NCBI RefSeq assembly: GCF_964213995.1
Contig: NC_135815.1
Coordinates: forward strand, 50,158,001 to 50,222,000
DNA: 64,000 nt
Direction of reading: 5' to 3'
Source: Mustelus asterias
Lineage: Eukaryota
The notes under the pieces were generated by a model. That model was not told the DNA's origin. It saw only the letters and a program-made list of their open reading frames with translations, and did not search any database. The position numbers and the translations under genes were made by a program. This document shows, piece by piece, positions 213 through 64,000 of the stretch. Positions within the stretch are counted from its first letter, which is position 1, and each line of letters begins with the position of its first letter.

Positions 213-31200
<30,988 letters not shown>

Positions 31201-31631: not shown

Positions 31632-31972
31632 GGGTGGCACGGTAGCACAGTGATTAGCACTGCTGCTTCACAGCTCCAAGGACCTGGGTTCAATTCCCGG
31701 CTTGGGTCACTGTCTGTGTGGAGTTTGCACATTCTCCTCGTGTCTGCGTGGGTTTCCTCCGGGTGCTCCAGTTTCCTCCCACAGTCCAAAGATGTGCGGG
31801 TTAGGTTGATTGGCCATGCTAAAATTGCCCCTTAGTGTCCTGGGATGCGTAGATTAGAGGGATTAGTGGGTAAAATATGTAGGGATAAGGGGGTAGGGCC
31901 CGGGTGGGGTTGTGGTCGGTGCAGACTCGATGGGCCGAATGGCCTCTTTCTGTACTGTAGGGTTTCTATGAA
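31632..31972 (+). mobile_element. Full-length HE1/V-type SINE
   Basis: tRNA head, central domain, tail; near-identical to 37639-37961. Confidence 0.9.
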
Positions 31973-34441: not shown

Positions 34442-35108
34442 GCTGGCCACCAGATTCGCCCATCTATTCGTATAGAAATAGCTGGAACAATAACAATAGA
34501 ATTTGCAATTTTCTATTGCTTTATCATTTCTGTATTATAGTATGGTTCTGAAGCACATTCAATCAGTCGTAACATTTACAGTTTTATTGGTCAAAAAGGA
34601 CTGGGACAAGAAAAAGGACATAAAAATTGCATAAAGTGATTTTTATCCACCGAGCCAGTGACTTCCTCTGCCCTTTCCCTCTTTTCCATTCTAATACCTT
34701 TTTAAATTAAGTCATTGCCTCTGTCTCCAGTAGCTATTCTGGTAAAACATTCCTTATTCTAATAATTTTCTATGAAAACATTTTTAACTTCACCCTCACC
34801 CTTCCTCCCCCCTTGCTCTTCGAGTCATAATCGTCAGGTCTTGACTCATTTTCCTCAATTTGCTGTTACCATCCCAGCTGATGTTGCTACTGTCGGGCGG
34901 CATGGTGGCATAGTGGTTAGTACGACTGCCTCACAGTGCCAGGGACCCCGTGTTCGATTACTGGTTGGGTCACTGTGTGGAGTTTGCATGTTCTTCCTTT
35001 GTCTGCGTGGGGATGCTCTGGTTTCCTCCCACAATCCAAACAATGTGCTGATTAGGTGCATTGGCCATGCTAAATTGTTCCTCAGTGTACCCGAACAGGC
35101 ATTGGAGT

Positions 35109-35348
35109 TGATGCACTACCAATCAAGCAAAGACTAGTTCGTATGCAAGAACAAATAGGCTTTTATTCGCAAAAGATTTGGAGCACACCCATGCTGATCA
35201 ACTGGTCCGGCGACTGAGGCAGGGGGGTTGGGAGCAGTCACCTTTATACCTGGACCAGGGGGGGAGGAGTCTCAGGCAGGGCCGGCAGGGGCATGCCCAG
35301 GCATGTCACACACACACACAGGCAATAGCTTAACAGTGGTTTACCACA
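35109..35348 (-). repeat. 3' LTR (240 bp)
   Basis: Direct repeat of 39463-39714. Confidence 0.95.
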
Positions 35349-35589
35349 TTCACCCCCTGCTTTTAAAAAAGAGTCTGGCGGGGGTGAAGTGGGTGGAACG
35401 ATATTTACAGAATTACAAATTTACAAATTCAATCTCTCTGGGGGCTTGATCTGCCGCTGCAACCGCCGTAGTGCCGGTTGTGGTGTCGGTTCCGGTGGCC
35501 GCGGTGTTGGTTCAGGCACCAGGCCGTAGTCGCTCGAGTCGTCTGTAGTCCCTTCCGACAGTCGGGTGCGTGGTGGCGGCTCCTGGGGC

Positions 35590-38226
35590 TCAGGCGTGCT
35601 GTATACGGGGGTTGGGGGTGTGGGGTTGTGGGTTGTCGTGGTCCCTGGGGCACCTGCGGGTGCCAGGTCTCAAATGGAGACCGTGTCCTCCTGCCCGTCG
35701 TGGTACGCCACATAGGCGTATTGGGAGCTGGACCCTTTCGACCAGGGGGTCCGACTTATGGGTCCTCACATGCTTCGGGAGCAGGACAGGGCCTGGGGAC
35801 GTCAGCCACGACGGTAGTGAGGTCCCTGAGGAGGACTTCCTGGGGAAAACAAACATTCTTTCATGAGGGGTAGTATTGGTAGCTGTGCAAAGGAGTGATC
35901 TAATCGAGTGTAGTGCATCAGGGAGGACCTCTTGCCAGCGGGTGACTGGAAGTCCTTTAGACCTCAGAGCTAGTAAAACGGCCTTCCAAACTGTCACGTT
36001 CTCCCTCTCTACCTGTCCGTTCCCCCTGGGGTTGTAGCTGGTGGTCCTACTCGAGGCTATGCCTTTGGAGAGCAGGTACTGTCGCAGCTCATCACTCATA
36101 AAGGAGGATCCCCGGTCGCTATGGATATAGCTAGGGAAACCGAACAGGGTGAAGGGGCTGTGCAGGGCCCTGATGACCGTGGCTGAGGTCATATCCAGGT
36201 AGGGAATAGCGAAGGGGAAACGTGAATATTCGTCAATGATGTTGAGGAAGTATATATGTTGTGGTCAGAAGAGGGGAGGGGGCCTTTGAAGTCGACGCTT
36301 AGGCGTTTGAAAGGGCGGGTAGCCTTTATGAGGTGTGCTCTGTCTGGCCGCTAGAAGTGCGGCTTGCACTCTGCGCAGACCTGGCAGTGTCTGGTTATAG
36401 ACCTGACTTCCTCAATGGAGTAGGGCAGGTTATGGGCTTTAATGAAGTGAAAAAACCTGGTGACCCCCGGGTGGCAGAGGTCGTTGTGGAGAGTCTGCAA
36501 TTGATCTATTTGTGCACTGGCACATATTCCCCGGGACAAGGCGCCTGGGGGCTCATTGAGCTTCCCGGGCCGGTATAAGATGTCGTAATTGTAGGTGGAA
36601 AGCTCGATTCTCCACCTCAATATTTTATCATTTTTGATCTTGCCCCGCTGCGTGTTGTTAAACATGAATGCAACTGACCGTTGGTCCATGAGTAGGGTGA
36701 ATCGTTTACCAGCTAAGTAGTGGTGCCAGTGCCATACAGCTTCCACTGTGGCTTGGGCCTCCTTCTAGACAGAGGAGTGTCGAATTTCAGGGCCTTGGAG
36801 GGTTCGTGAGAAGAAGGCCACAAGTCTGCCCGCCTGGTTAAGGGTGGCGGCTAGGGTGAAGTCAGACACATCGCTCTCCACCTGGAACGGGATGGATTCG
36901 TCTACAGTGTGCATCGTGGCCTTCGCAATGTCTGCTTTGATGCGGTCGAAGGCCAGGCGGGCCTCTGCCGTCAGGGGAAAAGAGGTGGATTTGATGAGCG
37001 GACGGGCTTTATCCGCATAATTGGGGACCCACTGGGTGTAATACAAGAAGAAGCCCAGACATCTCCTCAGTGCTTTGAGGCTGGTGGGGAGGGGAAGTTC
37101 CAGGAGGGGACGCATGCGGTCGGGATCGGGACCGATGACCCCGATTTTCACAACGCAACCAAGGATGGCGAGGCGGCGTGTGCGGAATACGCACTTCTCC
37201 TTATTATAGGTCAGATTTAGGAGTGTGGCGGTGTGGAGGAATTTGTGGAGGTTGGTGTCGTGGTCCTGCTGATCATGGCCGCAGATGGTGATGTTATCCA
37301 GGTACGGGAAGGTGGCCCGCAGCCCATTCTGGTCTACCATTCGGTCCATCTCACGCTGGAAAACCGAGACCCCGTTGGTGACGCCGAAGGGGACCCTAAG
37401 GAAGTGATAGAGGCGGCCATCCGCCTCGAAGGCAGTATATTGGCGGTCTTCCGGGCGGATAGGGAGCTGGTGGTATGCAGATTTTAAGTCGATGGTGGAG
37501 AACACCCGATATTACGCAATCTGATTAATCATGTCAGATATGCGGGGAAGGGGGTACGCGTCCAGCTGCGTGTAGCGGTTAATGGTCTGACTGTAGTCAA
37601 TGACCATGTGATGTTTCTCCCCAGTCTTAACAACTACTAGAAACATAGAAACCCTACAGTGCAGAAGGAGGCCATTCGGCCCATCGAGTCTGCACCGACC
37701 ACAAGCCCACCCAGGCCCTACCCCCACATATTTACCTGCTAATCCCTCAAATCTACGCATGTCAGGGGCAATTTTAACCTGGCCAATCAACCTAACCCGC
37801 ACATCTTTGGACTGTGGGAGGAAACCGGAGCACCCGGAGGAAACCCACGCAGACACGAGGAGAATGTGCAAACTCCACACAGACAGTGACCCGAGCCGGG
37901 AATCGAACCCGGGACCCTGGAGCTGTGAAGCAGCAGTGCTAACCACTGTGCTACCGTGCCGCTACTTGGGCTCTCCAGGGGCTGGTACTGGCCTCGATGA
38001 TCCCCTCCCCTAGGAGCTGTTGTACTTCAGACCTGATAAAAGCCCTGTCTCCAGCACTGTACCATCTGTTCTTGGTGGTGATGGGCTTGCAATCAGGGGT
38101 GAGATTTTCAAACAGTGAGGGGGGGGCGACTTTAAGGGTCGAGAGGCTGCAGGTGGTGCGTGGTGGGTGATTTAAGAACTGGTGATTGCAAACAGAGAGC
38201 GGAGGAAAAGGCCCATTATACTCCAT
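35590..38226 (-). pseudogene. Disrupted pol (RT, RNase H, integrase)
   Basis: IDLKSAYHQ, VPFGVTNG, YLDN, RNase H ESDVSD, HHCC (H..HPG..CQVC), IHSDRGSSF, GNGQVERE. Confidence 0.92.
37639..37961 (-). mobile_element. Young full-length HE1/V-type SINE inserted into Gypsy pol
   Basis: Interrupts SPWRAQV|VVKTGEK; flanked by ctact. Confidence 0.92.
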
Positions 38227-38283
38227 GGTGACACTTTTAAGGTGACACGGGAAATCTAGCCCCAGGAGTACAGCAGCGCAGAG

Positions 38284-39440
38284 TTATGGCAGCACGAGGA
38301 GCCTGAAGTTTTTGTACACTGTGCCCCGTACAGTCAGGGTCGCCACGCAGTACCCGAGGACATCCACCGAGTGGGACTTTGAAGCCATGGAGATTGTTTG
38401 CTTCACTGGCAGTACTGAAAGGGCATAGCGACTCACTGTGTTAGGGTGAATAAAGCTCTCTGTACTCCCACAGTCAAATAAACAGTTTGTAGTGCGACCG
38501 TTTACCTCGATGTCCATCATGGACCTGGCAAGTTGGTGAGGCCTGGATTGGTCCAGCGTAACCGAAGCCACCGTTGGATTTTGCGACGCGGCTGAGGGTG
38601 TCCAAGATGGCGGCCCGCACAGCTCACACAAGGCTGAAGGCGTCCAAGATGGCGGGTCGCACGCGACGCTACTGGGCTTGGAGGTCGACTTCGCTCTGCA
38701 TACCTTCGCATAATGGCCCTTCTTTCCACACCCGGAGCAGTTCGCATCCCTCGCCGGGCAGCGTTGTCAGGGATGCTTCCCCAGGCCACAGAAGTAGCAC
38801 TTCGGGCCTCCAGAGACTGCCGCAGCGGTCGGGTCATTGGTGGGACGTGGCATGGCGTAGGCCTGCGGCCCTCCCGAGTACAGAGGTGGTGGCGACTGCG
38901 GCGTCCACGATGCGTCCCCGTGGTCGGGGGTGTAGGCCTCGTGATTACGGAAGGCCACCTCTAACGAGTCGGCAAGCGCTACAGTCTTTTGTAGATCCAG
39001 CCCACCCTGTTCCAGCAGTCGTTGTCGGATATAGTTTGACCTGATACCCGTGACATAGGCATCTCTGATTAAGTCCTCAGTGTTTTGGGCGGCTGTTACG
39101 GCCTTGCAGTTGCAGGCCCTGCCAAGTGCTCGCAACGCATGCAGGAATTGGTCGTCCGATTCTCCTGGCTGTTGTCTGCGAGTAGCCAGAAGATGTCTGG
39201 TGTAGATTACTGGCTTTTTAAAAGTTCGATCGCATCCTCGTAAGTTTCAGCGTCTCTCATCATCGAGAATACTTGATCGCTTACCCGGGCATGGAGCACG
39301 TGTAGCTTGTCGGTTTCGGTCCGGATGACGGAGGCGGTGAGGAAAGTTTCGAAACATCGCAGCCAGTGATCGAAGCTGTTAGAGGCTCCTACGGCTTGAG
39401 GATCCAATTCTAATCTATTGGGTTTTAGTATCTGCTCCAT
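38284..39440 (-). pseudogene. Disrupted gag and protease of the Gypsy element
   Basis: MEQILKPNRLELDP..., IRDAYVTG..IRQRLLE, CYFCG..H knuckle, CLFDCGSTESFI protease motif; split across several ORFs. Confidence 0.85.
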
Positions 39441-39462
39441 CCCATTTTTTTGCAAATAAAAT

Positions 39463-39714
39463 TGATGCACTATCAATCAAGCAAAGACTAGTTCGTATGC
39501 AAAAACAAATAGGCTTTTATTCGCAAAAGATTTGGAGCACACCCATGCTGATGAACTGGTCCGGTGACTGAGGCAGGGGGGTTGGGAGCAGTCACCTTTA
39601 TACCTGGACCAGGGGGGGAGGAGTCTCAGGCAGGGCCGGCAGGGGCATGCCCAGGCATGTCTCACACACACACACACACACACACAGGCAATAGCTTAAC
39701 AGTGGTTTACCACA
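39463..39714 (-). repeat. 5' LTR (252 bp)
   Basis: Differs from the 3' LTR by about 4 substitutions plus a longer (CA)n; TATAAA and AATAAA on the minus strand. Confidence 0.95.
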
Positions 39715-41294: not shown

Positions 41295-41968
41295 GATGTG
41301 GAGATGCCGGCGTTGGACTGGGGTAAACACAGTAAGAAGTTTAACAACACCAGGTTAAAGTCCAACAGGTTTATTTGGTAGCAAAAGCCACACAAGCTTT
41401 CGGAGCTGCAAGCCCCTTCTTCAGGTGAGTGGGAATTCTGTTCACAAACAGAGCATATAAAGACACAAACTCAATTTACATGAATAATGGTTGGAATACG
41501 AATACTTACAACTAATCAAGTCTTTAAGAAACAAAACAACATGAGTGGAGAGAGCATCAAGACAGGCTAAAAAGATGTGTATTGTCTCCAGACAAGACAG
41601 CCAGTGAAACTCTGTGGGGGTTCCGCACACACGAGGACGGCCTCAACCGGGATATTGGGTTCATGTCACATTATTTGTAACCCCCACAGAGTTTCACTGG
41701 CTGTCTTGTCTGGAGACAATACACATCTTTTTAGCCTGTCTTGATGCTCTCTCCACTCATGTTGTTTTGTTTCTTAAAGACTTGATTAGTTGTAAGTATT
41801 CGCATTCCAACCATTATTCATGTAAATTGAGTTTGTGTCTTTATATGCTCTGTTTGTGAACAGAATTCCCACTCACCTGAAGAAGGGGCTTGCAGCTCCG
41901 AAAGCTTGTGTGGCTTTTGCTACCAAATAAACCTGTTGGACTTTAACCTGGTGTTGTTAAACTTCTTA
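41295..41968. mobile_element. Penelope-like fold-back insertion: 290-bp inverted arms, GIY-YIG C-terminal spacer, tail on the left arm
   Basis: Arms 41333-41622 / 41679-41968 (1 mismatch seen); spacer FRTHEDGLNRDIGFMSHYL*; 12-bp TSD aatggtgttctc (41283-41294, 41968-41979). Confidence 0.92.
41874..41910 (+). ncRNA. Minimal hammerhead ribozyme motif (mirror copy in the left arm)
   Basis: cac-CUGAAGA-A-GGGGCU/UGC/AGCUCC-GAAA-GC-UU-gug. Confidence 0.78.
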
Positions 41969-42965
41969 ATGGTGTTCTCATCAGAGATTCTTTAAGTTGG
42001 TTTATTAATGTAGCAAAATTCACCCAAGAAGTCTTTCTCCTTGATAATCTTGCTGATGATTGGTCACTATAAGATTGCTAGTTCCTTGCTTTTTATCAGT
42101 TGCTGACATACATTGTGGATTCTATCAAGAACGATGCTTCATTGTTGCAGAAAGTGCAGTGTTGTTCTGGAACACTAACATTCATTACTGAGAGTTCAGT
42201 AAAGTACAGTATCAATGCATCAGCCACACTTTGAATATACTAAAGGAACCCATCTTTAGCAAACTTGATATCCATTTTAAGTTTCTGCCTGCAAATTCTT
42301 TGATCTTGTATTAGCAAATCTCTCCAGATGTTAGCTTCTTGCCTTTATTGTTTCAACATATGTTTATATCTCAATATCAGTAGCTGATCATTCTGTATTT
42401 TCACTCAGCTTCTTGGACACAGTTTCTGTTACAATTAAGTTTTTCCCTGGGACATATTTCCTTTTACAAATGATACTGTTACATTACATCATTTAGCATG
42501 TTCAGCAGCTTCATCAATAGTCCCAGCTTATTATATTCTCTTGCATTTTTAGAAAGTATTGACATTGGAACCTCTTAAAGTATATTCATAGTATAAGGGA
42601 AGACATCATCCACAATCTTTACAGGCTCACACTTGAGCAGATCATTGTTTCCAATACACCAGCGTGGATTTCACTGTAATAATACAGTGAGGTTATCAGC
42701 ATTGGTCATAATTACAGGATAAACATGACAGAAATGTCTGGCGTCCACATGTACAGTTAAATGCAGAAATCCAGAAGTTGCCACATCTGGAAACACATGC
42801 TGGTCCTCAGTCCATGAGAAATGATGACATGTAGCTTTAAAGAGGTGTATCTTGAATGACTGCCAATCATTACCCACCTCAACAGGATGTATTAGTCCTA
42901 TAATTGTTGGTCAGTCTATGAGCAACAGTGATAGAAGTCAGATGTACCATGTTAAGCTCCCAGTG

Positions 42966-44860: not shown

Positions 44861-46130
44861 ACAACACTATCTGTGTATGGTCTTATCTTAAAATAAAGAA
44901 CCTGCATATGTTTCACCAATTCCTGCATGTAATTGGTGCATTTATGTTGAAGAGAAAATATAACATTATCCATTGCTGTTCTGGAACACTGACAAACAAT
45001 AATGGTGTCAAAACTAAAGAGCAAGGAGTGTAATGTATTCATATAAAACTGGGTAGGATTGTTGTTTTCTTGTGGCCCCACAATTCCTGCTGGGTCACTG
45101 TGCCACTGGAAGTGTGTTGCAGTGGGAATTCTGATCATTAACTCGTCCTGACACTGATCCGAACTCAAATCCCCCCAGTGATCGAGTTATTGGCATAAAG
45201 GGGACAGGCACCATGCCATTTTTGATCTTTCCTGAACATCTGCTCCATGTGCTGCCAGGAATTTCAGCTTCGTTTGCATCTCTATCAATGGGATAATGGG
45301 CAGGCTCATAGGTTAGAAAACTGTAAGACTTTCAAATATGTGCTAGTTTTAAACTTGCAGCTTTCCTATTGGAAATCAATCATTCTGGGATTGAATGGAT
45401 TTGGGAAAGCAGCATTCTAGAATCCACTTCTGCTATATTATCTTATGTGTAATTATATGCAGGCATACTTTCTGTGGTATGACAGAGAGCAGAACAGAGA
45501 TTATCCCACCTACTCTTCTCCACTTCTGACGTTAAACGTGGGTGGGCACAGAAAGTGCAGAACTAGATTCTAACTGAAATTTCTTTTCACAGCTCATAAA
45601 TTGGGAGAGAATTTGCTGTCAAAATAATAGTGAGGTTAATGATGTGAGCCCATACTTATATATAAATAGTACAGCAACTTCAAGCAAGGAGCAGAATGTG
45701 AAGTTAAATGAAAATATCCAAGAGTTGCTATCTGAGATTCACTAATCTGCTGTTAGCTTCTTGTAAACCTTAACTCACTGTCTACCTCATCACTAACTTA
45801 CACTGAATGTCATAAATCTTCTATATTTGCATGCTACATTATAATGAAACTCACTGAGATATTCAGAACTAGTTATTAGTAGTGCATATATCCTTTTAAC
45901 ATTAATTGTTAATCAACCTCTCTGGCACTGAAAATTAATTATGAACTATGATAGTAAGCATTATAATTCTTCCAGGTTTTGAAATTTTTGGAGATTTAAA
46001 AATAAGTATCGAATTGTACAATTTACTTTTTCCTTTTTCTAATTCTCTTTCTGTACCTGATCTAATGTTAAATTTACCATCTTTAAATCACCATCCTTCT
46101 CAGTCCTTAATCAGTCAAAATCACCTTCTC

Positions 46131-46330
46131 AGTCCAAAGATGTGCGGGTTAGGTTGATTGGCCATGCTAAAATTGCCCCTTAGTGTCCTGAGATGCATAG
46201 GTTAGAGGGATTAGTGGGTAAAATATGTAGGGATATGGGGGTAGGGCCTGGGTGGGATTGTGGTCGGTGCAGACTCGATGGGCCGAATGGCCTCTTTCTG
46301 TAGTGTAGGGTTTCTATGATTGATTTCTAT
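46131..46330 (+). mobile_element. HE1/V-type SINE 3' half
   Basis: Matches 31780-31972. Confidence 0.85.
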
Positions 46331-47971: not shown

Positions 47972-48055
47972 ATGGCCTCGGCTGAGCTGCGGAAAGAGCT
48001 GGAGGAGTATCTGAAAGGGCTGAATATCGACACCGTGTGTGAGGAACACCCAGAG
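47972..48055 (+). CDS. PRORSD1: PRORSD1 exon 1 (MASAELRKELEEYLKGLNIDTVCEEHPE)
   Basis: Kozak gaaATGG, donor GAG|gtgaga; joins in phase 0 to give the ProX-type HPEVFTVE motif. Confidence 0.9.
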
Positions 48056-50137
48056 GTGAGAAGCAGGAGAGCCGCTGCCTCCCGGAGCGCCAGCTGCTCA
48101 AGGGGAACACTTTACACTTATTCAAATCAAAGGGAACGCGCTGCACTGCAACCTCTTCAAACACTTGTTCATGGGTCCCGCGATCTTCAAAATTATGTAG
48201 CTTTTCTTGTTAATGCAGTGAATTCAAGGGAAACTATTGTGCCGAGTGTTTAGAATGCGGAACTTGCTATTGTGAGGAGATGAGGTGAACAGGATAGATA
48301 CATTTTAAGGAGAAGTTAGATGAAAAAGAAAGGAATATTTGATGGCATTGGGTAAAGGGGGATAGCTAGGAGAATGCTTGTGTGGAGCATAAACATCGAT
48401 ATGGACATGTTGGCCTATTTCTGTTCATTTGTGACACATTTAACTATGTTATTAACTGGCATCAGCTTGATTGGGCTTAACAGATGTCATAAAGTACTCA
48501 TATCAACTTGTTCAGTATTCTATTCACAAGTATTTTTCCTAGTATCCCTTTCCTGAATGCCAGCAGCCAAAGAATGCAGGAGGGTATGTAATATTCCCCA
48601 AAAGGCAGATAACCAATCACTGGAGTAACATTTCCACATATGCCATGGCTGTATTTTGTAAGTGAATTTCTTGTTGTTGCATGTTGTTTTAAAGTGACAC
48701 TTTCCACTTTATGGAAAAATCCACATCCATAAAGTGAGAACAAATTATTCAGATAAGAAAGCATGGTGGATTTGCCGTGGTTCCCCGTGGACGGCAAGAA
48801 GAGTTTGTCAATCAGAATAGAGAGTCTGAGTCTTGATCTTCCAGGCAGCAAGGCTTTATTTGCTAATACAAGTCAACAAAGCCGGGATTTCCGGATGAAT
48901 CCAAAGAACCAGCGCACTTACAGCCATTTTTATACATTTGTTAGCTTCATACCTCATCATTCTTATCTCACAGTCAAGGCTATTCTTGCAGACCCCAAGG
49001 CCACTTTTCGTTAGCCACCATGGTTTACTAGACCTATGTTATCTGCCTTTTCTCTGATTGGTCACCAATGAATATGCTATGATATCATTGTGGTTCCATC
49101 TTGCCTTCCTATCTGAAGTTTATTATCTAATCAGCCAAGGTTGTTGTTTGTTCAACCATTGTGGGGCATCCTGCTATGCCAAGACTTTTTAAAAGATGTG
49201 TGTTTCTTAGGTTTTAGGAAATTACTTTCAGCTTCTGTGTGTTTGCTTGACTTCTTTTAGCCTTCATGTTCATTCATGTGAGTATCTATGTGTACTGGCC
49301 TGGTAAGGTATTGTGCACTTAAAAGGGTACAAGTGTATGCTTAATAAAATATGTGATGATACATGAGAACTTCTTAGGTAGTGATTATCTCTTCTATGTT
49401 AATTATTATCTCCTACTTGCCCTAATAATTATTCCTTCCAATATATGTTGTCTTAATGATTATTCCTTACAGATTCTCAATATAAACACCAGTTGAAGAA
49501 GTTTTGCTTGAAAAATCAAAATTTACAACCTGGTGAATCTGGGATCCACTGATCAAGTTGCAGCAAAAAAAACTTATTGTTCATCAAAAAGTCACTGCAA
49601 AAGTTAGACAATATTCTGGCTGTCTTCAGTATTGAAGAATGAATGACAACCTATTGTCTGCGATTAACAGTTTAATAAATAATAATGGGCCTGACCTGGT
49701 TTTTACTGTAATTGGGGAAAAGTAGATGCCACTTCTGATTGCATTGCTGATTGTTTGAAGTAGGCTGTCATGTCCTTTCTTGAGAATGAATTTAAACTGT
49801 CATGGGTTGATATATTTTTCTGTGTAATTCAACTTATGTGGCTTGTACCATACCTGTGTACAGTTAAATATAAAATTGCAGCAATTTGTATTTTTAATGG
49901 CATCTCAAAATTTGTGTATTGTACAGTAAAGTCAGCCATGACTTTAAACCACAACTACTGTTATGGGAGCATACTCATTTTTACCAAATGCTCATCATCT
50001 AGGCTCGACTGAAGAAGTATTTGAAAGCCAGTTACTCATTAAAGTAAAACAAATCAATGTGAGATTCTTAGGAGGGTAAGTACATTGAAAGCTCTCCTCC
50101 TACCCATCAAAATTTCCTTTCAATATTAGTGTTAAAA

Positions 50138-50870: not shown

Positions 50871-50876
50871 TGAATT

Positions 50877-51222
50877 ATAGAATCCCTACAGTGCAGCAGG
50901 AGGCCATTCGGCCCATTGAGTCTGCACTGATTCTTTGAGAGAGAATCTTACGCAGGCCCTATTCCTGCAACCCCATGTATTTACTCTACTAATCCCCCTA
51001 ACATACACATCTTGGGACATTACGGGGCAATTTAGCATGGCCAATCCACCTAACCTGCACATCTTTGGACTGTGGGAGGAAACCGGAGCACCCAGAGGAA
51101 ACCCTTGCAGACACTGGGAGAACATGCAAACTCCACACAGACAGTGACTCAAGGCCGGAATTGAACCTGGGTTCCTGACACTGTGAGGCAACACTGCTAA
51201 CCACTGTGCCACCATGCTGCCC
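50877..51222 (-). mobile_element. HE1/V-type SINE
   Basis: Head, core and tail as in other copies. Confidence 0.88.
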
Positions 51223-53181
51223 TATAGTTTCGATTAAAATGCTGAACATTACTGAAAAGATTAAATTAAACTATCTCATTTTGCTGTGGCATTTCTACAG
51301 TCAGAGAATACATTCTCTTAATTTTTCTGTTGCTCTTGTTTTGCTGGTTGTGTGTCAACTTTTCTGCTGGTCTCTTTTGCATTTCCTGCTTCTTTCTCTT
51401 TAAACTTTGTTTGCTTCTAACTGCCCTCTTCACCATGTCTCTTGTTTTCTTTCCTTTTGGGAGGGTGATGTAGCAGGGAAAGTTACCACTGAGAATGGCA
51501 GGCTGCATTAGTCTTTCGAAAATGTGGCCTGCAACTACAGACAGTCCCCTCCTGCCCCATGCTACCTCGCTTCCAACCTACCTATTTGCCTTCTATTGAT
51601 GCTCTTTATGTGAGTGTTATGCTGGTGACTTTAAATTTTGAAAAGCATCTGATAAACTGCAGCAGTTCATTTAGTTAAATGACACTCAGCAAGCAGCATA
51701 TGCTCAGAAGCACCTGAGGCCCTCGAGTAAAAGGATGAATGAAAGCATTAAAAGTCAAAAGTCATGGCACTTTTTATTTCACACAAAATAATTAGGAACA
51801 GGAATAGGCCATTCAGCCCCTCACGTTTACTGCACCATTTGATAAGATTATGGCTGATCTAATTATGGCCTCAACTCCATTTTCCTGACTCCCCTCCATA
51901 AACCTTGACTCCCTTGTCAAGCAAAAAATCTGTAACTCATGCTTGATAAATGACCCAGCATCCACTGTTCTCTGGGGAAGAAAACTCCCCCGACTAATGA
52001 TCTGCTGAGAGAAAAGATATCTCCTCATCTCAGTCTTAAATGGGAGACCCTTTATTTTTAAACAATGTCTCCTGGTTCTAGACCTCTCCACAGAGGAAGC
52101 ATCCTTTCAGCACCTACCCTGTCAAATCCTATCTTGTATGTTTCAATAAAATCACACCTCATTCTTCTAAACTCTAATGTGTTCAACCTGCTCAACCTTT
52201 CCTCATAAGCTCATTCCTTCATCCCAGGAATCAGTCAAGGGAAATTCATTCTCTGCAGGTGGATGAGATTGGTATGGCTGGCATTTATTGCCCATCCCTA
52301 GTTGCCCTAAGAAGGTGGTGGTGGACCACTTTCTTGAATGACAGCTGCATAAAGTTTATAGCACAGGCCACGTGACCCAGCTGATCCGTGCCAGTGCATG
52401 CATCTTTGTCATGATGTGATACAACTGAATAGCTTGCAAGGCCACTTCAGAGGGTAGTTCAGAATCAATCACAATGGTGTGTGGGATTGGAGTCACACCC
52501 AGCCAATCTGGGTAAGGATGGCAAATCAAACCAGTGGGATTCTACATCAATCTGACAGAATTAGAGTGATTTTTACCGATACAAACTTCTTCTTTCTAGA
52601 TCTTTTAAAATGTAATTCAAATTCTCAAATTGCCATGGTGGGATTTTTAATTCATATTCTGTTAATTATTAATCCAGTAACATAATCACTCATTCTAATC
52701 TATATTAAAAGGCATTTGAGGTTTCAGTCACTGAGAGCAAATGGTGGCAATATTTTTTTCTGAAAGATTTTGAGTGATTTGCAGGCAAAGGATAATATAG
52801 CGCCACGTTGTGTTGGTACAGGGAATCACGATAAACCAGAGATGAGATTAACACTGGAAATCTGAGTGCATTGTCACCTACAGGAATTGCAGCGGAATGT
52901 AACAGACTCTTTCCTAGTGGAATTTCCACATGTAGTGATTACATAGCATTTTCAAGGGACCATACAAGAATTCTAAGATAATATTGGTTGATCTTCCCAG
53001 CAGTGCGCATGGGGATTCAAGAGCAATTGTATCCTTCAGGTGAAGTAGGTTCAGGACAAGTGAGTATTGGACGAGAGTTCACAATTTTAAAATTTCTACA
53101 TTTTATTCTTCTTTATATATTTCCTTTTATAAATTAACGTGTCAACATATATAATGGAAACTTGTCATGCTGTAATTAGAA

Positions 53182-54495: not shown

Positions 54496-54924
54496 GTATT
54501 CACAGTTGAAGCCATGATGCCTTATGTACAACACCTTAAAGGGGCACACAGTAAGAATTTGTTTCTCAAAGACAAGAAGAAAAAGAGCTTATGGTTGGTG
54601 ACAGTTTTACACAACAGACAAGTCAACTTGAATGACCTAGCGAAGAAGCTGGGGTGTGGAAGTGGAAATCTGCGCTTTGCAGATGAAGGGATAATGCTGG
54701 AAAAACTGAAAGTTGGTCAAGGTTGCGCAACACCACTTGCTTTGTTTTGTGATAAACAAGGGGATGTAAAATTTGTTTTGGATTCAAACTTTGTGGATGG
54801 AGGACATGAGAGACTCTATTTTCATCCAATGATTAATTCAGCCACTATGGGTATTAAGCCTGTAGACTTTTTGCATTTTGTAAAGGAAACAGGTCATGAA
54901 CCTACAATTCTAAATTTTGATTAA
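54496..54924 (+). CDS. PRORSD1: PRORSD1 exon 2; prolyl-tRNA synthetase-associated domain protein (YbaK/ProX family, ProXp-ala-like Ala-tRNA(Pro) deacylase), 170 aa total
   Basis: T-rich acceptor tgtag|GTA; motifs HSKNLFLKDKK, LRFA, GCATPLAL, FHPMINSAT; TAA stop; position next to MTIF2 as in mammals. Confidence 0.95.
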   Translation, partial: VFTVEAMMPYVQHLKGAHSKNLFLKDKKKKSLWLVTVLHNRQVNLNDLAKKLGCGSGNLRFADEGIMLEKLKVGQGCATPLALFCDKQGDVKFVLDSNFVDGGHERLYFHPMINSATMGIKPVDFLHFVKETGHEPTILNFD

Positions 54925-55689: not shown

Positions 55690-57545
55690 ATTATCACCCA
55701 CCAACATTCTTCAACTGATGAATCATTATGTCTCCATGTTGAACATGGAGAGGTGTTGAGGGTACTCTGAATGGCGACTCCACTGTCAAATACCAAGAGT
55801 GACTTGGTAACATCACTAAGTAGGCAGAGTCCTGAGGGACATCATTGACTAACTGGGTCTGTGGCAGGTGGTGATAGAACCAAAACGAGGGAAAAAACAA
55901 TCATCTTCACTAATTTACCTGTTGCAAATTCATCAGTCCATGATAGTATTGGTAGGAGTGAGCATTATATAGTCCTTGTGCAGACAAAATCCTTTCGCAC
56001 TGGGTGTCCTACCCTCCACTGTGATATTTGCCTCTATCATTATGCTAAATGGGCTAGATTCATAACAGATTAAGCAGCTCAAACCTGGGTATTTGTGAGG
56101 TAGTGCAAGCTATCAGCAATGACAAAATTGTATCCACAGTCTGTAAGCTCATGGCCTGGCGTATCCCCTTGCAATACCATTACCACCAAGCCAAGTGATC
56201 AGCCATTATTTATTGAGGAGTGTAAGAATACATATCAGAAGTAGCATCAGGTATACCTAAAAATGATGCAATAAGCTGGTGATTTTTTAACACAGGACAA
56301 ATATGCTAAACAACAGAAGCAGCATGTATATACAGAACTAAGTGATTGTGAGACGAACGACTCTGCAGTCCTATCACATACCATTGTTAATGGTGGTAGA
56401 CAATTGAGCAACTAATCAGAGAAGAAGGCTCCACTAACATCCCAATCCTGAATTCTGCTCCATGTACCAATGTAAAAGGCCAGGGTAAAGTGTTTCCAGC
56501 TATCCTAGCCAGAAGTGGCAAATGGATGATCCACCATATTTACCTCTTGAGAGGACCTCAGCATCATGGGTGTATGTCGTATCAATAAATGGCTGAGTCC
56601 TGATAACATCATGGCTCCAGTGCTGAAAATTCCTGCTCCAAAATTAGCCACTACCCTAGTCAAGCTCTTCAGTAAGAAGTCTAACAACACCAGGTTAAAG
56701 TCCAACAACACCAGGTTAAAGTCCAAAAGTTTATTTGGTAGCAAAAGCCACTGTTTAGCACAGCTACAACACTGACATCTACTGACGATGTGGAAAATTG
56801 CCCAACCATCCTATCCACAAAATAAACAAAGCTCTCTTGTGGAGAGAGAAACACGAGTTTTGAGTCCAATGTCAATGCTCCAAGATTAGCAAAGTGATGG
56901 AACATGTCATTGATAGTGCTTTCAAGCAGCATCTACTCAGCAATAATACCCTCACCAGTACTCAATTGGGGTTCTCAGGGCCACTCAGCTCCTGACCTCC
57001 ATACAAACATTGACTAAAGAGTTGAATTCTAAAGGTGAAGTGAGAGTAACTGCCCTTGCCATCAAGGCAGCTTTTCCCTGAAGGTGATATCAAGGAATCT
57101 GAGTAAAATTGAAGTAAATGGGAATTAATGGAAAACTCTTCACTGGCTGGAGGCATACCTAGTATAAAGGAAGATGTTTGTGGCTGTTGCAGGCCAATCA
57201 TCTCAGCCTCAGGGCACGCTGCAGAGATTATTCAGGGCATTTTCCTAGGTACAACTATCTTCAGTTGTATCATCAATGACCTTCTTTGCATCCAAAGGTC
57301 GGAAGTGATGATTGGAAAGTGTCTGGTCCCTCTTCAGATAACAAAACTGTCTGTGTCCAAATGCAGCAAGACCTGGACAACCTTTAGGTTGGACTGATGA
57401 TTGACAAGTAACATTTGTGCCACACAAGTGCCAGGCAATAACCATCTCCAACAAGGAGTCCAACTAGTTCCCTTGACATTTGATGGCATTGCCTTCACTG
57501 AGGATGCCACCTAGGGTTACCATTGACCAGAAATGTAACTGGAAC
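55690..57545 (+). mobile_element. Degenerate CR1/L2-group LINE
   Basis: GIFLGTTIFSCIINDL and IGRSEHYIV motifs; same family as 19146-20700. Confidence 0.7.
56671..56751 (-). mobile_element. Single-arm Penelope-like terminal fragment with an internal ~21-bp tandem duplication
   Basis: agtaagaagtct(aacaacaccaggttaaagtcc)x2 aaaagtttatttggtagcaaaagcca. Confidence 0.8.
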
Positions 57546-58868
57546 AAAATGGTGTGTGGCTTGGGGGGGATACTTGCAAGTGGTCATATTCTCATGCATC
57601 TAATGCCCTTATCCTTCTAGGTGATAGAAGTTGTGGGTTTGGAAGGTGCTGTCAAAGAAATCTCGGTGAATTACTGCAGTGCCTCTTGTAGATGGTACGC
57701 ACTTCAGCTACTATGGATCGATGGTGAAGGGAGTGAATATTAAAGGTAGTGGGAAGGATGCCAATCAAATGGTCTGTTTGTCCTGGATGGTATCAAGCTT
57801 CTTGAGTGTTGTTGGAGCTGCACTTATCCAGACAAGTGGACAGTATTAAACTTCTGACTTGTGCCATGTGGATGGCAGACAGGCTTTGGGGAATTAGGAG
57901 GTGAGTTACTTCCTGCAGCCCTGCAACCATAATGGTATTTCATTCCTTCATTGTGGCCTCTTGAACAGTCCTGGCTTTATTGAACAATCCTGCCTTCAGC
58001 TGCCTAGGTCCTAAGGTCTGGAATTTTCACCCTAAACGTCTCCATCTCTCTCTCTTCCTTCACAATGCTTCTTGCTCACTTGTCTTAATATCTCATGAGG
58101 CTTGGACTCAAATTTTAACAATGCTCCTATGAAAGCTTTGAAACATTTTATTACATTAAAGGCACCATATAAATGCAAGTAACTGATGAAAGGGAAAATG
58201 GGGAGCAGAGTGGAGTTCATGAGTTAAAACGATAAAATAACTTCTTTAAAAAGTTCCACTAAGACACCAAAAATATACTCGCATTTGATTTGACTGCTTA
58301 AATTATTTTTGTCTGGTTACAAAAATAGTAAAAAGACAGAAGTAGAGGCTCTATATCTGAATGCATGTAGCATTTGTAACAAAACAGATGAATTGATAGA
58401 TGAATAGAAATAAATATGTATGATCTGATCATTACAGAGACATGGCTGCAGGATGACAAAGACTGGAACCTGAATATTCAAGGATACTTAGGAAGAACAG
58501 GAAGATAGGAAAAGGTCGAGGGGTAGCTCTGTTAATTATGAATTACATTGGTACAATAAAAAAAATAATCTTAGTTCTGGAGAACTAAGAAATGAGAAAT
58601 AAGAAAGATAAGTCACTTGTGGGAGTGGTTTATAGGCCCCATCACAGTAATCGCACTGTAGGATGATGTATACAGGAAGTGGGTTTATGAAGAAGGTATG
58701 GCAGTAATCATGGGTGATCTTAATCTGCATATAGATTGGATGAATCAGTTTGGCAAAGGTAGCTTGGATGATGAGTTCATAGAGTATTTCCAGGACAGTT
58801 TTTTTGAGCAACCTATTCTAGCACCCCAACCAGAGAGCAAGCTAATCTAGATCTGGTAACATGCAATG

Positions 58869-58968
58869 ACAGTAAGAAGTCTCACAACACCAGGTTAAAG
58901 ACTTTAACCTGGTGTTGTGAGACTTCTTACTGTGCTTACCCCAGTCCAACGCCGGCATCTCCACATCA
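58869..58968 (+). mobile_element. Minimal Penelope-like palindrome (32-bp perfect arms, 1-nt spacer, tail)
   Basis: 13-bp TSD taacatgcaatga (58857-58869, 58969-58981). Confidence 0.88.
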
Positions 58969-59081
58969 TAACATGCAATGAGACAGGATTAAATAATGAC
59001 CTTGTAGTGAAGGCAGCCCGGGTAGCAGTGATCATGATTGAATTTCACATTCAGTTTGAGGGAAACTAGTGTTTTAAACTT

Positions 59082-59602
59082 ATCTCAGCCTTTTGGCTAA
59101 GATGCAAATGAGATCAAGCCAGGAGGTGCAATGCCTACTCCAATCAGTTGGATCATGTAGATCAAGCCCAAGACAGGAGGTGAGAGCCCTGTCTTGTCAG
59201 CTTGGATCCGGAATGTCTCACTTGATGAGACTCTGAATTGGACTTGATTGAATTGGATAAATAATTTTTTTTTTAAACGGTAATTATCAGCCTTTTGGCT
59301 AAGATCAAGTGTAGTATCAACATCCTACACTTGTTTGAAGTCATGAGGTTGCACTGAGGCTTCATTTGAAGCAATTTTTTAAAGCGGCATCTCGGCCTTT
59401 TGGCTAAGATGCAAATGAGATCAGGCTTGGAGAAGATGCAATGCCTGCTCCAATCAGCTTGGATCATGTAGATCAAGCCCAAGACAGGAAGTGAGAGGCC
59501 TGTCTTGTCAGCTTGGATCGGGAATGTCTCACTTGCTGAGACTTTGAATTGGACTTTGATTGGATTGAATTGGATATATAAACAAAAAACAACGGTAATT
59601 AT
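59082..59602 (+). mobile_element. Composite retroposon(s) with U2 snRNA-derived heads, arranged A-B-A'
   Basis: Three U2 5' segments (ctcggccttttggctaagat; the middle one extends to caagtgtagtatc); duplicated ~190-bp body; A/T tails; 12-bp direct repeat aacggtaattat around B-A'. Confidence 0.8.
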
Positions 59603-60113
59603 TAGAGCATGAAGACAAAGCTGGCTAAAGTGAACTGGAAAATTAGGTTAATAGAGTTAAGCGACAGACATTTAAGGAGATTTTCCAAAATACTCGGGTA
59701 AAATATATTCCAATGAGAAAGAAAGACTCTTAAGGGAAGGACACACCAGCCATGGCTAAGGGAGGAAGTTAAAGATAGTATCAAATTGAAAGAAAAACCC
59801 ATAATACTGCAGAGATGAGTGACATATCAGAAATTTGGACAAAATATAAAGAACTCCAAAGAATGGCTAAAAGATTAATATCTTTAAATTTATAAATGGG
59901 ATTAAAGTATGAGAGAAATCTAGCTAGAGATATAAAAACAGATGAGTTTCTACATACGCACATATGATTTAGGAGCAGGAGTAGGCCACTCGGCCCTTTG
60001 AGCCTGCTCTGCCATTCAATAAGATCATGGCTGATGCGATTTTAACCTCAACTCCACAATCTTCACTACCACCAATAACCTTTTACCACCATGCTTATCA
60101 AAAATGTATCAAC

Positions 60114-60460
60114 AGACTGGAACCTGAATATTCAAGGGTACTTAGGAAGAACAGGAAGATAGGAAAAGATTGATTAATTATGAATTATGTTGGTACAATA
60201 GAGAATAATTTTAGTTCTGGAGAACTAAGAAATGAGAAATAAGAAAGATAAGAAATCACTTGTGGGAGTGGTTTATAGGCCCCATCACAGTAATTGCACT
60301 GTAGGATGAGGTATACAGGAAGTGTGTTTATGAGGAAGGTATGGCAGTAATCATGGATGATCTTAATCTGCACATAAATTGGATGAATCAGTTTGGCAAA
60401 GGTAGCCTGAATGTTGAGTTCATAGAGTATTTCCAGTTTTTTGGAGCAACATATTCTAAA
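60114..60460 (+). repeat. Local duplicate of about 58460-58820
   Basis: Near-identical text, also visible in the matching antisense ORFs 58536..58811 and 60185..60679. Confidence 0.8.
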
Positions 60461-60517
60461 AATATTTTTAAAATATTCAAGGACTCTGCTTCCACTGCCT
60501 TTTGAGAAAGAGAATGT

Positions 60518-61615
60518 CGGGGGCGATTCTCCCAGCTTGCTGCGTTGCTCAAGCAGTGCAGTGAGCCAGGAGACATCAGTGGAGGCCGTTTCACAGGCTT
60601 CCCGCTGGGCATCATGGCCCCCGCGACTCTCCATGACTAAGATTTTCAGCATAATCAGCTCCACGCCAGATATCGACATGGAGCTAATTACAATATGGAA
60701 ATCTCATTTTATTAGCGGGCCTCGGACTGAATCCTCCAGGCCTGCTAGCACCTCCCCCGCCGCCAGGAGTGGTTCCCTCCAGCAGGGGAGACGGTAGCAG
60801 GCCTGCGCCCTATTAACGGGGACAGGCAGCGGACCCTGCTGGAGGGAAGAACGGTCATTGAGGCCCGCCTGGGAGGTCGGGGTAAGAAGATGCCCCCTGG
60901 GCAGTGACAGTCTGATAGTGCCAGCCTGGCACCACCTAAGGGGCAAGATGGCACTGCTCAAGGAGCACCTTGGCACTGCCCACCAGGCATTGGGCAGAGC
61001 CAGGGGGGCGGGGCCAGAGGGACTGGGGCCTATTGAGGAGGGCGATCGGTAGGAGGGGGGGACCCACTGCCATTCTCCAAGAAGATTGGTGGGGGAGGAA
61101 GAGTAAAGGTGATCAAACTGGCCATCTGGGTGGGGTGGGGTAGTGGGGACGGGGGACTGGGGCTGCCGGGGGGGTGGCGTTGGGAGATCGGAATTGGCTG
61201 GGTGAGGGATTAGGGAGATTGGGGCTGGCCGGGGGAGGTCTGGGAGGGCAGTGATCGGGGGTTGGTGGGGGGGGGGGGGGGGAGGGGGGTTGGGGTGGGG
61301 TGGGGTTGGTAGGCCAGTGATGGGGGGTTACAGGACTGGCCAGCGATCAGGTTGGCTGGCAATGCTGGGCCAGTGCACATGCACTGATCTCCATGCTGGC
61401 ATATTGGCACATGCGCAGTGGCCCACTCAGCGTTATGCTGCTGGGCTTGGGTGGGAATTATCCGTGCCCACCACTTTTCAGAGCGAATCACGCTGAGGCA
61501 CTTTGCAGTGCACAGAATGCCAGAGATTCCGTCTGGCAATAACGCTAAAAAAACAAGCGGGATTTACTCCCATTTTCCCGCATGTTGGGGACTTAAATAT
61601 TTTTGAGAGAATTCC
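60518..61615. mobile_element. GC-rich non-autonomous element with short terminal inverted repeats (MITE-like)
   Basis: Starts gggggcgattctccc, ends gagagaattcc; G-rich interior; related small pieces at about 7610-8240 and 30441-30570. Confidence 0.45.
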
Positions 61616-62830
61616 ATTATTTGAAGAAGTAACAAGCAACGTGGATAAAGGGGAACCTGTGGATGTGCGGTATATAAGATTTCCGGAAGGCATATGACAA
61701 GGTGTTACATCAAAGGTTACTATGCAAAATAAGAGATTATTGTAACATATTAGCATGAATGGATGATTGGATTGCTAACAGGATCATTAACAGGAAATAG
61801 AGTAAACATAAATGGGTCAGTTTCAGATTGGCAAGATGTGACGAGTGAAGTGTCACAGAGATCATTGCTGGGGCCTCAACTATTTACAATTTTTATCAAT
61901 GATTTGTATAAAGGGACTGAATGTAAGGTTGGTAAATTTGCTGATGACACAAAGATTGGTGGCAAAGTAAGTTGTGAAGAGAATGTAAGGAATATGCAAA
62001 GGGTTATACATGGGTTAAGTGAATGGGCAAAAATTTGGCAAATAGACTATAATGTGGGAAATGTGAATTTGTCTACTTTGGTAGAAAGAATAGAAAAACA
62101 GCAAATTATTTGAATGGAGAGAGATGATGAAATTCTGAGGTACAGAGGGTTTTGGGTGTCCTGGTCCACTAATCACCAAAACTTAGTGTGCAGGTACAGC
62201 AAGTGATTAGGAAGGCTAATGGAATGTGGTTGTTTATTTCAAGGGGAATGAAATAAAAAAGTAGGGACACTTTGCCACAGTTGTACAGGGCTTTGTTGAG
62301 ACCACATCTGGGGTATGGTGCACAATTTTGGTCTCCCTATTTAAGAAAGGATATAAGTGTCTCAGAAACAATTCAGAAAAGGTTCACTTGACTGATATCT
62401 AGGATCGGGGAGTTTCTTATGAGGAAAGGTTGGATGGGATCCATTGGGGTTTTAAAAAATGAGAGGTGATCTTATTGAAACAGATAAGATCCTGAGGGAC
62501 CTGACAGGGTGGAGGCTGGGAGGATGCTTCTCTTGATGTAGAGACTAGAACTAGTGGACGCAGTTTAAAAATAAGGAGTCTCCTATGTAAGGTAGCGGTG
62601 AGAATAAATATTTTTCTCTGTGTTGAGAGTCTTTGGAATTGGAGATTGGTGGAGGCAGGGTCATTGAATATTTTTAAGGCAGATGTAGATAACTTTTGAC
62701 TTCCTTGTTCATCAAGAATCTATCAGACATAGACAGAATATGGAGTTGAGGCTTCAGTCACAGCAGCCATGATCTTATTGAAAGGCTGAGCATATTCGAT
62801 AGGTCGAATGCCTCGTGCTGCTCCTAATTT
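61615..62830 (+). mobile_element. CR1 LINE fragment (RT to 3'UTR)
   Basis: VDKGEPVDV, LGPQLFTIFINDL, KFADDTK. Confidence 0.88.
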
Positions 62831-63149: not shown

Positions 63150-63885
63150 ACAGTTTCTGAGAACAGTATGTTCTAGCACAAACCAGGGAACAAGCTGTTC
63201 TAGATCTGGTAATGTACAATGAAACAGAATTAATCAATAACCTCACAGTAAAGATGACAGCAATCATAACATGATAGAATTCACTTTCAGTTTGAAGATG
63301 AGAAGTGTGCTCTGAGACCATTGTTTTAAACGTAAATAAATATAATTATAAGGGTATGAATGCAGAGTTGGCTAAAGTGAATGGGGAAACAAGGTTAAAA
63401 GGTAAGATAGTAGAGAAGCTGTGGCAGACTTTTAAGAAGTAAAGAAAGTCTTTTTGAGAAGGATGCGTCCTCTATGGCTAAATGTGAAAGTTAAGGATAG
63501 TATCAAATTAAAATAAACACTGTTCAACCCTGCAAAGAATGGAGGTAGTTCAGAAGATGTGACAGATTCTAAGAACCAACAAAGAATAGTAAATAATTAA
63601 TAGAGGGAGAAATTAGAATATGAGAGAAAGTTGCTAGAAATATATAAAGATAGTTAGAGTTTCTACAAGTATTTAAAAAGGGAAAGAGTAACCAAAGTAT
63701 GCACTGATCCTCTAGAGAATGAGTTGGCAAAATTAATAAAGGGAAATAAGGAAATAACAGAAGCGTTGAACAGGTATTTTGTGCCGGTCTTCAATGTAGA
63801 AGACTTAGAGAACAAAAATACTCAAAAACCAAGATGTCAAGAGGGGAAGAAATAAAACTATCAATATCACCATCATTAGGGAAAA
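63150..63885 (+). mobile_element. CR1 LINE fragment (EN-RT linker)
   Basis: Similar to 58800-59950 and 27660-28300. Confidence 0.7.
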
Positions 63886-63887
63886 GA

Positions 63888-64000
63888 ATCATAGAATCCC
63901 TACAGTGCAGAAGGAGGCCATTCAGCCCATCGAGCCTGCACTGACAACAATCCCACCGAGATCCTATCCCTGTAACCCCACGTATTTAGCCTGCTCATCC
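63888..64000 (-). mobile_element. HE1/V-type SINE 3' end, runs off the window
   Basis: atagaatccctacagtgcagaaggaggccattc tail. Confidence 0.8.

Follow-up and report, generated by a model that had tools for sequence, protein, structure and literature searches.

Short interspersed elements (SINEs) headed by small nuclear RNA (snRNA) are described only from crocodilians, as the SINEU group, in the excerpt of Kojima (2015, PMC4494074) used here, and the same text treats their mode of transcription as an open question. A 64,000-nt stretch of the genome of the shark Mustelus asterias (contig NC_135815.1, positions 50,158,001 to 50,222,000 of the forward strand; hereafter the window, with coordinates counted from its first base) raises the question of whether sharks carry elements of this kind. 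At 59082-59602, a first-pass annotation had placed three copies of the U2 snRNA 5′ end, in units A, B, and A′, inside an old CR1 long interspersed element (LINE) and had proposed that B-A′ was one retroposed dimer. The feature is real and is probably a SINEU-like retroposon of sharks, made up of two monomers and one 5′ addition. The repeated unit is the ~190-nt monomer A, which is present twice at one LINE site. A shark family, if true, would constitute a second, independent origin of snRNA-headed SINEs; a locus without further copies would amount to no more than a chimeric retrocopy of an unusual kind.

Three U2 heads inside a decayed LINE

The exact 15-nt U2 core occurred three times in the window, at 59088, 59290, and 59395, and the other U2-core matches on both strands consisted of four sites, each with 3 mismatches. 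The locus did not qualify as a U2 snRNA gene: the Rfam U2 model (RF00004) reached 37.2 bits (E 9.7e-6) over B and part of A′ against a gathering score of 46, with the middle of U2 left unaligned, and the branch-site region, which is free in a U2 gene, was paired in B and absent in A. On A alone and A′ alone, the model matched only U2 nt 7-26, with E values of 0.099 and 0.042, respectively. As in SINEU, the units at 59082-59602 carry a 5′ head from U1 or U2 snRNA, in this case U2, and are non-coding and shorter than 500 bp (A, ~190 nt; B-A′, ~300 nt).

The placement of the three heads inside an old LINE proved correct in all coordinates, the host being a decayed CR1-like LINE. All features of the locus are given on the + strand. 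The left flank (58340-59081) is the decayed endonuclease region, as judged from a broken endonuclease-like translation and from homology to LINE copies of the window at ~63150-63700 and ~27640-27800; one of the two pieces tested gave a weak match to Pfam Exo_endo_phos_2 (E 0.21). The right flank (59603-59955) was likewise assigned by homology to LINE copies in the window. The label CR1 is based on general features of such elements and on homology to copies in the window that bear reverse transcriptase (RT). An empty insertion site was present in two other window copies of the host LINE. The nearby LINE duplicate at 60114-60458 was rejected as a source of the empty site because it stops short of it.

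Other classes of sequence were considered and set aside. Rfam gave no match at gathering level over the whole window, and no ribozyme, small nucleolar RNA, or other Rfam family came near threshold in the whole window, the locus, A alone, or A′ alone. A satellite array was rejected, with Tandem Repeats Finder reporting no long-period array in 57000-62000.

Structure of the repeated unit A

Unit A (59082-59274), delimited by blastn, alignment, and folding, opens with a U2 head, continues with two hairpin modules and a small hairpin (59215-59231), and ends with a tail of short repeats and a run of ten Ts (T10). The head (59082-59118) contains one A, U2 nt 7-27, a 7-nt insert (59104-59110), and U2 nt 24-31 again; its limits come from the Rfam positions 7-26 and from numbering by eye on the human U2 printed in the part of bioRxiv 10.1101/2021.08.01.454689 used here. 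Module 1 (59111-59154) is a predicted hairpin opened by U2 nt 24-31, with a core that by eye resembles U2 nt ~103-135. Module 2 (59159-59208) is an internal duplicate of module 1, as indicated by alignment and folding, and starts with a match to the B box of RNA polymerase III (Pol III) promoters. The T10 run (59265-59274), read directly from the sequence, closes the unit and is a possible Pol III terminator. Unit A′ (59389-59586), identified by alignment to A and by the box scan, is the second copy of A, with an A-box match at 59401-59411, a B-box match at 59471-59479, and an A-rich 3′ end.

The kinship of A and A′ as two U2-headed units was borne out. They were 88.6% identical over 193 columns (E 6.8e-67; 171 matches, 12 mismatches, and 10 gap columns), with bodies 93% identical, and they shared their start base while differing by independent indels and in their tails. 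The "A/T tail" of the first-pass annotation conceals a real difference, in that A ends in T10, B ends in T6 plus a spacer, and A′ alone is A-rich.

The body of A, previously described as ~165 nt of non-U2 sequence, contained the two duplicated hairpin modules, of which the first may be partly U2 by eye. The modules have both ends in common and each folds as a hairpin; similarity as high as theirs was found in 0 of 1000 shuffles for A and 4 of 1000 for A′. In A′, the module 1 core agreed by eye with U2 nt ~103-135 in 22 of 25 columns, across two gaps of 4 nt; in A, 17 of 21 columns agreed, with one gap. By a post hoc hand estimate made on the human variant rather than on shark U2, the chance of such a match is ~0.01 for A′, and A alone is not significant. 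Rfam did not find this match in A or A′ alone, and its model set the module 1 hairpin on U2 stem IV, whereas the by-eye match lies in the stem III region. The body of A may hold post-Sm U2 sequence, as judged from the letters alone, which would make A an internally deleted U2 like SINEU-3.

Unit A folded moderately better than its shuffles (z -2.58), and A′ folded no better than chance (z -1.38, 21/200). When the two modules were compared by hand in an ungapped register, all five of five outer-stem pairs were altered on both sides; module covariation is nevertheless not claimed, because the count on a MAFFT alignment gave one both-sides-changed pair, a value reached by 173 of 500 shuffles. The tail of A contains, at 59240-59249, a third stretch complementary to U2 nt 24-31; the predicted fold allows this stretch to pair with the first bases of module 1.

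Unit B folds on its own U2 head

Unit B (59287-59388), defined by its U2 match and by folding, starts with U2 nt 9-40 (59287-59318), which pair with an imperfect antisense arm at 59325-59351. A second hairpin occupies 59359-59372, and T6 (59375-59380) and a spacer of 8 nt complete the unit. Its U2 stretch had been given as nt ~8-40 followed by non-U2 sequence; the match stands but covers nt 9-40 and includes a single G-to-A change, located at a CpG, and the part taken for non-U2 opens with an imperfect antisense copy of the unit's own nt 9-40. The resulting hairpin has 23 pairs (10 AU, 9 GC, and 4 GU) and buries U2 nt 28-36, and a fold as good was found in 0 of 200 shuffles (z -3.87) or, with the head fixed, in 2 of 1000. 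In addition, Rfam aligned the T run of B to the U2 Sm site at near-native spacing. Because the head folds on its own antisense copy and the unit ends in T6, B looks like a 5′ template-switch addition to A′.

The 3′ ends of A and B (59265-59279 and 59373-59388) were alike, each with a T run, three As, and CGG. Given this likeness, the 8-nt spacer of B may either have been carried along from an earlier locus, as a leftover of the same LINE target, or represent an end motif common to both units.

These folds bear on a reading in which A and B arose as retro-pseudogenes, by occasional copying and without propagating themselves, from functional small RNAs of sharks (U2 variants or structured RNAs similar to U2) that exist in few copies. 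The strong fold of B, which conceals U2 nt 28-36, its T run on the Sm site in the Rfam alignment, and the moderate fold of A are all consistent with such an origin, which we nonetheless consider very unlikely: no Rfam family reached its threshold, A′ folded at chance level, inter-module covariation was not seen (173/500 shuffles), and a template that was inserted twice at one bond is likely to have been abundant.

The end of the U2 match in B also bears on Keno and Utopia, LINEs that target U2 and that had been put forward as a source of U2-5′ chimeras. Under this explanation, the elements would be 5′ chimeras joining the U2 5′ end to LINE untranslated sequence, co-transcribed from the U2 promoter. 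According to the excerpts used here, the 3′ flank of Keno starts at U2 nt 39 (PMC6136364), the Utopia site is the same as that of Keno (PMC4640811), and some crocodilian Tx1 families have U1 or U2 heads (PMC4494074); the U2 match of B ends at nt 40, 2 nt beyond the insertion site. In contrast, A and A′ depart from U2 at nt 27/31 rather than at 38-40, neither U2 3′ flank nor LINE coding sequence follows the heads, and the word "shark" occurs 0 times in the excerpted text of the Utopia paper (PMC4640811). Nor did the locus have the surroundings of a Keno or Utopia insertion, since its flanks are CR1-like LINE DNA and no U2 3′ flank was found at the locus or by the Rfam scan of the window. Because the head of A stops at U2 nt 27/31, these LINEs cannot explain A, and as an account of the elements in general this origin is highly improbable; for B considered by itself, it is possible, if somewhat unlikely.

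Target-site duplication and two insertions at one site

The left LINE flank stops at 59081/2 and the LINE restarts at 59587/8 in the same reading frame, so that the outer junction has an overlap of 0-1 nt. The LINE target to the right of the site (59587-59602) aligns to the empty site in the two other LINE copies and continues the frame of the left flank. Its last 12 nt (59591-59602) are the 3′ copy of the perfect 12-bp direct repeat that had been reported to bracket B-A′. The 5′ copy, at 59275-59287 by LINE comparison, is a perfect 12 nt at 59276-59287, or 13 nt on the assumption that it was once 16 nt long. The repeat was confirmed, and its chance of occurrence was ~1.3e-7 with fixed ends and 1.6e-5 with 5 nt of slack per end. 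The alignment of the LINE at the empty site and the restoration of frame across the outer junction imply that it is a true duplicate of target DNA. The original length of the duplication may have been 16 nt, in which case the 5′ copy is now short of one 3-nt repeat unit.

Unit B-A′ bears the marks of one retroposition, namely, a 12- to 16-nt target-site duplication (TSD), a TT|AAAC-type site, and an A-rich 3′ end, with a 1-nt overlap at its 5′ junction; these support the earlier proposal of a single retroposition event. The TT|AAAC site is one that we liken to the L1/Tx1-type endonuclease site. Retroposition marks of the kind seen in SINEU are thus found at both levels, as 12-16 nt of duplication at B-A′ and 0-1 nt at the outer junction. 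The dimer did not hold up as the family unit, since A was seen twice and B once, with T6 ahead of A′. The dimeric model also left out unit A, which agrees with A′ in both its 5′ end and its 3′ target junction; two 3′ junctions of A-type units therefore lie at one LINE site.

These observations are best accommodated by two retropositions of A RNA at the same LINE bond, one of which would have been extended 5′ by a template switch to B RNA, leaving the 12- to 16-nt duplication. In this account, A is a short non-autonomous retroposon built of U2 snRNA pieces, SINEU-like, that arose in sharks separately from crocodilian SINEU, a proposition that we regard as evenly balanced. The junctions and the structure of the copies are read directly from the sequence; which enzyme acted, in what order the events took place, how many copies there are, and whether Pol III is used are matters of inference. 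Should insertion into this LINE site prove to recur, it would provide a new case of target preference.

Two other histories can be drawn from the same junctions. In one, B-A′ is a fixed dimeric U2-headed SINE that was copied whole, and A is a monomer or a 5′-truncated copy. A single target duplication does bracket B-A′, many SINEU-1 subfamilies were fixed after 5′ addition of U2 (in the excerpt of Kojima, PMC4494074), and B followed by A′ yields a U2-like layout with an Sm-like T run between two hairpins. However, B was seen once, and A starts at the exact B/A′ boundary, which is unlikely under random truncation; furthermore, B is without the promoter boxes described below and T6 stands upstream of A′, so that a dimer would require an outside RNA polymerase II (Pol II) promoter. 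We consider a fixed dimer distinctly unlikely.

In the other history, which we also hold to be improbable, one A retrocopy was duplicated in tandem as DNA through 4-nt microhomology and B was inserted later at the junction with a 3-nt duplication, such that the 12-mer is not a TSD. The two stretches of 4-nt microhomology, 59080-59083 at the 5′ junction and 59599-59602 in the target, lie exactly where this model requires them. In addition, 350 bp of the host LINE recur 1.64 kb away as a duplicate of similar divergence (20/342 versus 12/183 for A and A′). Against this, the tails are wholly different (T10 versus A-rich) while the bodies are 93% alike, and B is not a local copy because it has U2 nt 32-40, which are missing from A.

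A candidate Pol III promoter in A and A′

Returning to A as a SINEU-like monomer, matches to both internal Pol III promoter boxes were found with a relaxed consensus. The A-box match (59094-59104) lies at +13 of A and owes its last base to the insert, a base that the native U2 head of B lacks; the B-box match (59160-59168) lies at +79, at the start of module 2. Both A and A′ match the A box at +13, with the B box at +79 in A and +83 in A′, a spacing that we take to be Alu-like. In contrast, neither box was complete in B, with its native U2 head, in the same scan. Five pairs of A and B boxes 25-65 nt apart were found on both strands of the window, compared with a mean of 0.73 in 30 shuffles; two were those of A and A′, and three lay within transfer RNA (tRNA)-headed repeats. 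The scan was not exhaustive, as at least one copy of the tRNA-headed repeat was missed. Shuffling of whole units produced a 5′-placed pair in 9 and 2 of 20000 trials; when the head was kept unshuffled, the counts were 245 and 161 of 20000. The three pairs in tRNA-headed repeat copies serve as positive controls.

In the sense of SINEBase, a SINE has an internal Pol III promoter, of which the box matches in A and A′ are an indication, and ≥60% identity to tRNA, 5S, or 7SL over 60 nt, which was not found, with no Rfam match of this kind up to E 10. SINEBase also sets a minimum of 100 interspersed copies; the window holds two copies of A, at a single site. ARAGORN predicted no tRNA genes in the whole window, a weak control because it also missed the tRNA-headed repeats.

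Termination was considered from the T runs. In human cells, termination of Pol III at T4 is incomplete, affecting only 18-75% of transcripts, whereas runs of six or more Ts end all of them (excerpt of PMC5725217). The T4 of the head is a possible terminator, and, if Pol III is used, B-A′ cannot be a single transcript, given the T6 ahead of A′. In mammals, the terminator is often missing from SINE copies, or has been extended with Ts where the A tail is short (excerpt of PMC8466645), which would explain T10 in A and its absence in A′. If the boxes work, a Pol II snRNA fragment was made into a Pol III unit by two small changes, and the candidate promoter could explain how such U2-headed elements copy themselves.

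Searches for further copies

With blastn, the 521-nt locus had nothing outside itself in the window better than E 0.33. Searches beyond the window are weak as negatives, as the collections are without shark DNA. GTDB genomes had 0 matches for each of two element-specific patterns, plasmids had no blastn match to the element, and the protein sets gave no candidates for the antisense-frame translation and none that passed among 29 candidates (longer proteins) for the sense-frame translation. The representative protein library gave one match, which at 31% identity is too low to be a DNA-level copy. Neither of two element-specific probes was printed in the literature searched. No shark snRNA-headed SINE was reported in that literature, whose scope excluded most subscription journals, Repbase Reports, and shark repeat supplements, and the family may already be catalogued.

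The fullest version of the SINEU-like reading is that sharks evolved their own U2-headed SINE family, which has an A/B-box promoter built from U2 by a small insert and an internal duplication, prefers one site in a CR1-like LINE, and acquires further U2-headed RNAs, the self-masking hairpin B among them, through template switches; we consider it rather unlikely. A number of findings weigh against the SINEU-like reading as a whole. Only two copies of A were seen in 64 kb, both at the same site; no partner LINE with a 3′ end matching the element tails was found within the window; and the ends of A and B are without poly(A), unlike all SINEU groups. The A/A′ divergence (12/183) is close to that of the nearby DNA-level LINE duplication (20/342). 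With respect to the promoter, U2 itself supplies most box positions, three minus-strand A-box matches without a B box lie inside the element, and the box consensus is loose and was tried after the sequence had been seen. In the excerpts used, SINEBase treats boxes as an indication and not proof (PMC3531059), and Kojima regarded Pol III as ruled out for SINEU by the T runs inside these elements (PMC4494074).

Comparison with known systems

Crocodilian SINEU have poly(A) tails, repeated 5′ U1/U2 additions, mobilization by Tx1-Mar, and no recognizable promoter, and they form tandem copies around a TSD and prefer another transposon as a target (PMC4494074; this excerpt also covers the SINEU comparisons below). 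The locus works like SINEU in its head, junctions, and tandem insertion but is outside the named families SINEU-1, -2, and -3 by host, which is a shark instead of a crocodilian. It resembles SINEU-1 in having a short U2 head on a body of unknown origin, extra 5′ U2 pieces, TSDs of ~10 bp, and a T run within the head, and differs in its shark host, in the T runs rather than poly(A) that end A and B, and in the box matches of A, SINEU having no promoter-like sequence. With SINEU-3 it shares tandem copies around a TSD inside another transposon and, possibly, an internally deleted U2; however, SINEU-3 retains 32 + 83 nt of U2, compared with at most ~31 + 25 nt here, and targets Mariner-N4_AMi, whereas the target here is a CR1-like LINE, with the preference judged from one locus.

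The likeness to Keno (Tx1) and Utopia (NeSL), taken from the excerpts cited above, is that the U2 match of B ends 2 nt past their shared site; the differences are the lack of coding sequence and of U2 3′ flank at this locus and the earlier end of the A head. The Pol III SINEs B2, Dip, and Ves (excerpt of PMC8466645) similarly have A and B boxes and a T-run terminator before a short A-rich end, with the terminator lost or lengthened in copies, but the head here is U2 rather than tRNA or 7SL, and no canonical AATAAA is located upstream of the T run. Finally, chimeric snRNA retrocopies made by template switching (excerpt of PMC4494074) place a truncated snRNA piece 5′ of another retroposed RNA within one TSD, as in B-A′; B differs in not being plain U2, as 70 nt of structured, non-identical sequence follows nt 40.

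Other features of the window

A further 100-bp piece interrupts the host LINE at 58869-58968; it contains a perfect inverted repeat of 32 bp and lies between the two copies of a 13-bp direct repeat (58857-58869 and 58969-58981). This piece matches the ends of palindromic repeats at 5859-6108, 25316-26036, 41295-41976, and 56670-56751, which we assume may be Penelope-like terminal repeats. A 94%-identical copy of the LINE piece 58460-58820 lies 1.64 kb downstream, at 60114-60458, apparently within another repeat, and looks like a local DNA-templated duplication.

A long terminal repeat (LTR) retrotransposon occupies 35108-39714 (-), with terminal repeats (35108-35348 and 39462-39714) 93.7% alike, RT, RNase H, and integrase domains in separate frames, and a tRNA-headed repeat inserted near 37640-37960. 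The abundant family of tRNA-like-headed repeats, presumably of the shark HE1/V-SINE type, is represented at 9951-10484, 16574-16882, 20184-20355, 22620-22924, 31632-31971, 37638-37962, 46126-46327, 50872-51228, and 63881-64000.

Host coding sequence includes a PRORSD1-type gene with two exons (47972-48056 and 54496-54924, +). Among the best 120 of 327 matches, its exon at 54496-54921 was 96% identical to a sawshark-named cluster, 92% to two rays, and 80% to Callorhinchus, which places the genome among the sharks. In addition, an exon at 10347-10823 (-), which we take for mitochondrial initiation factor 2, gave a weak GTP_EFTU match.
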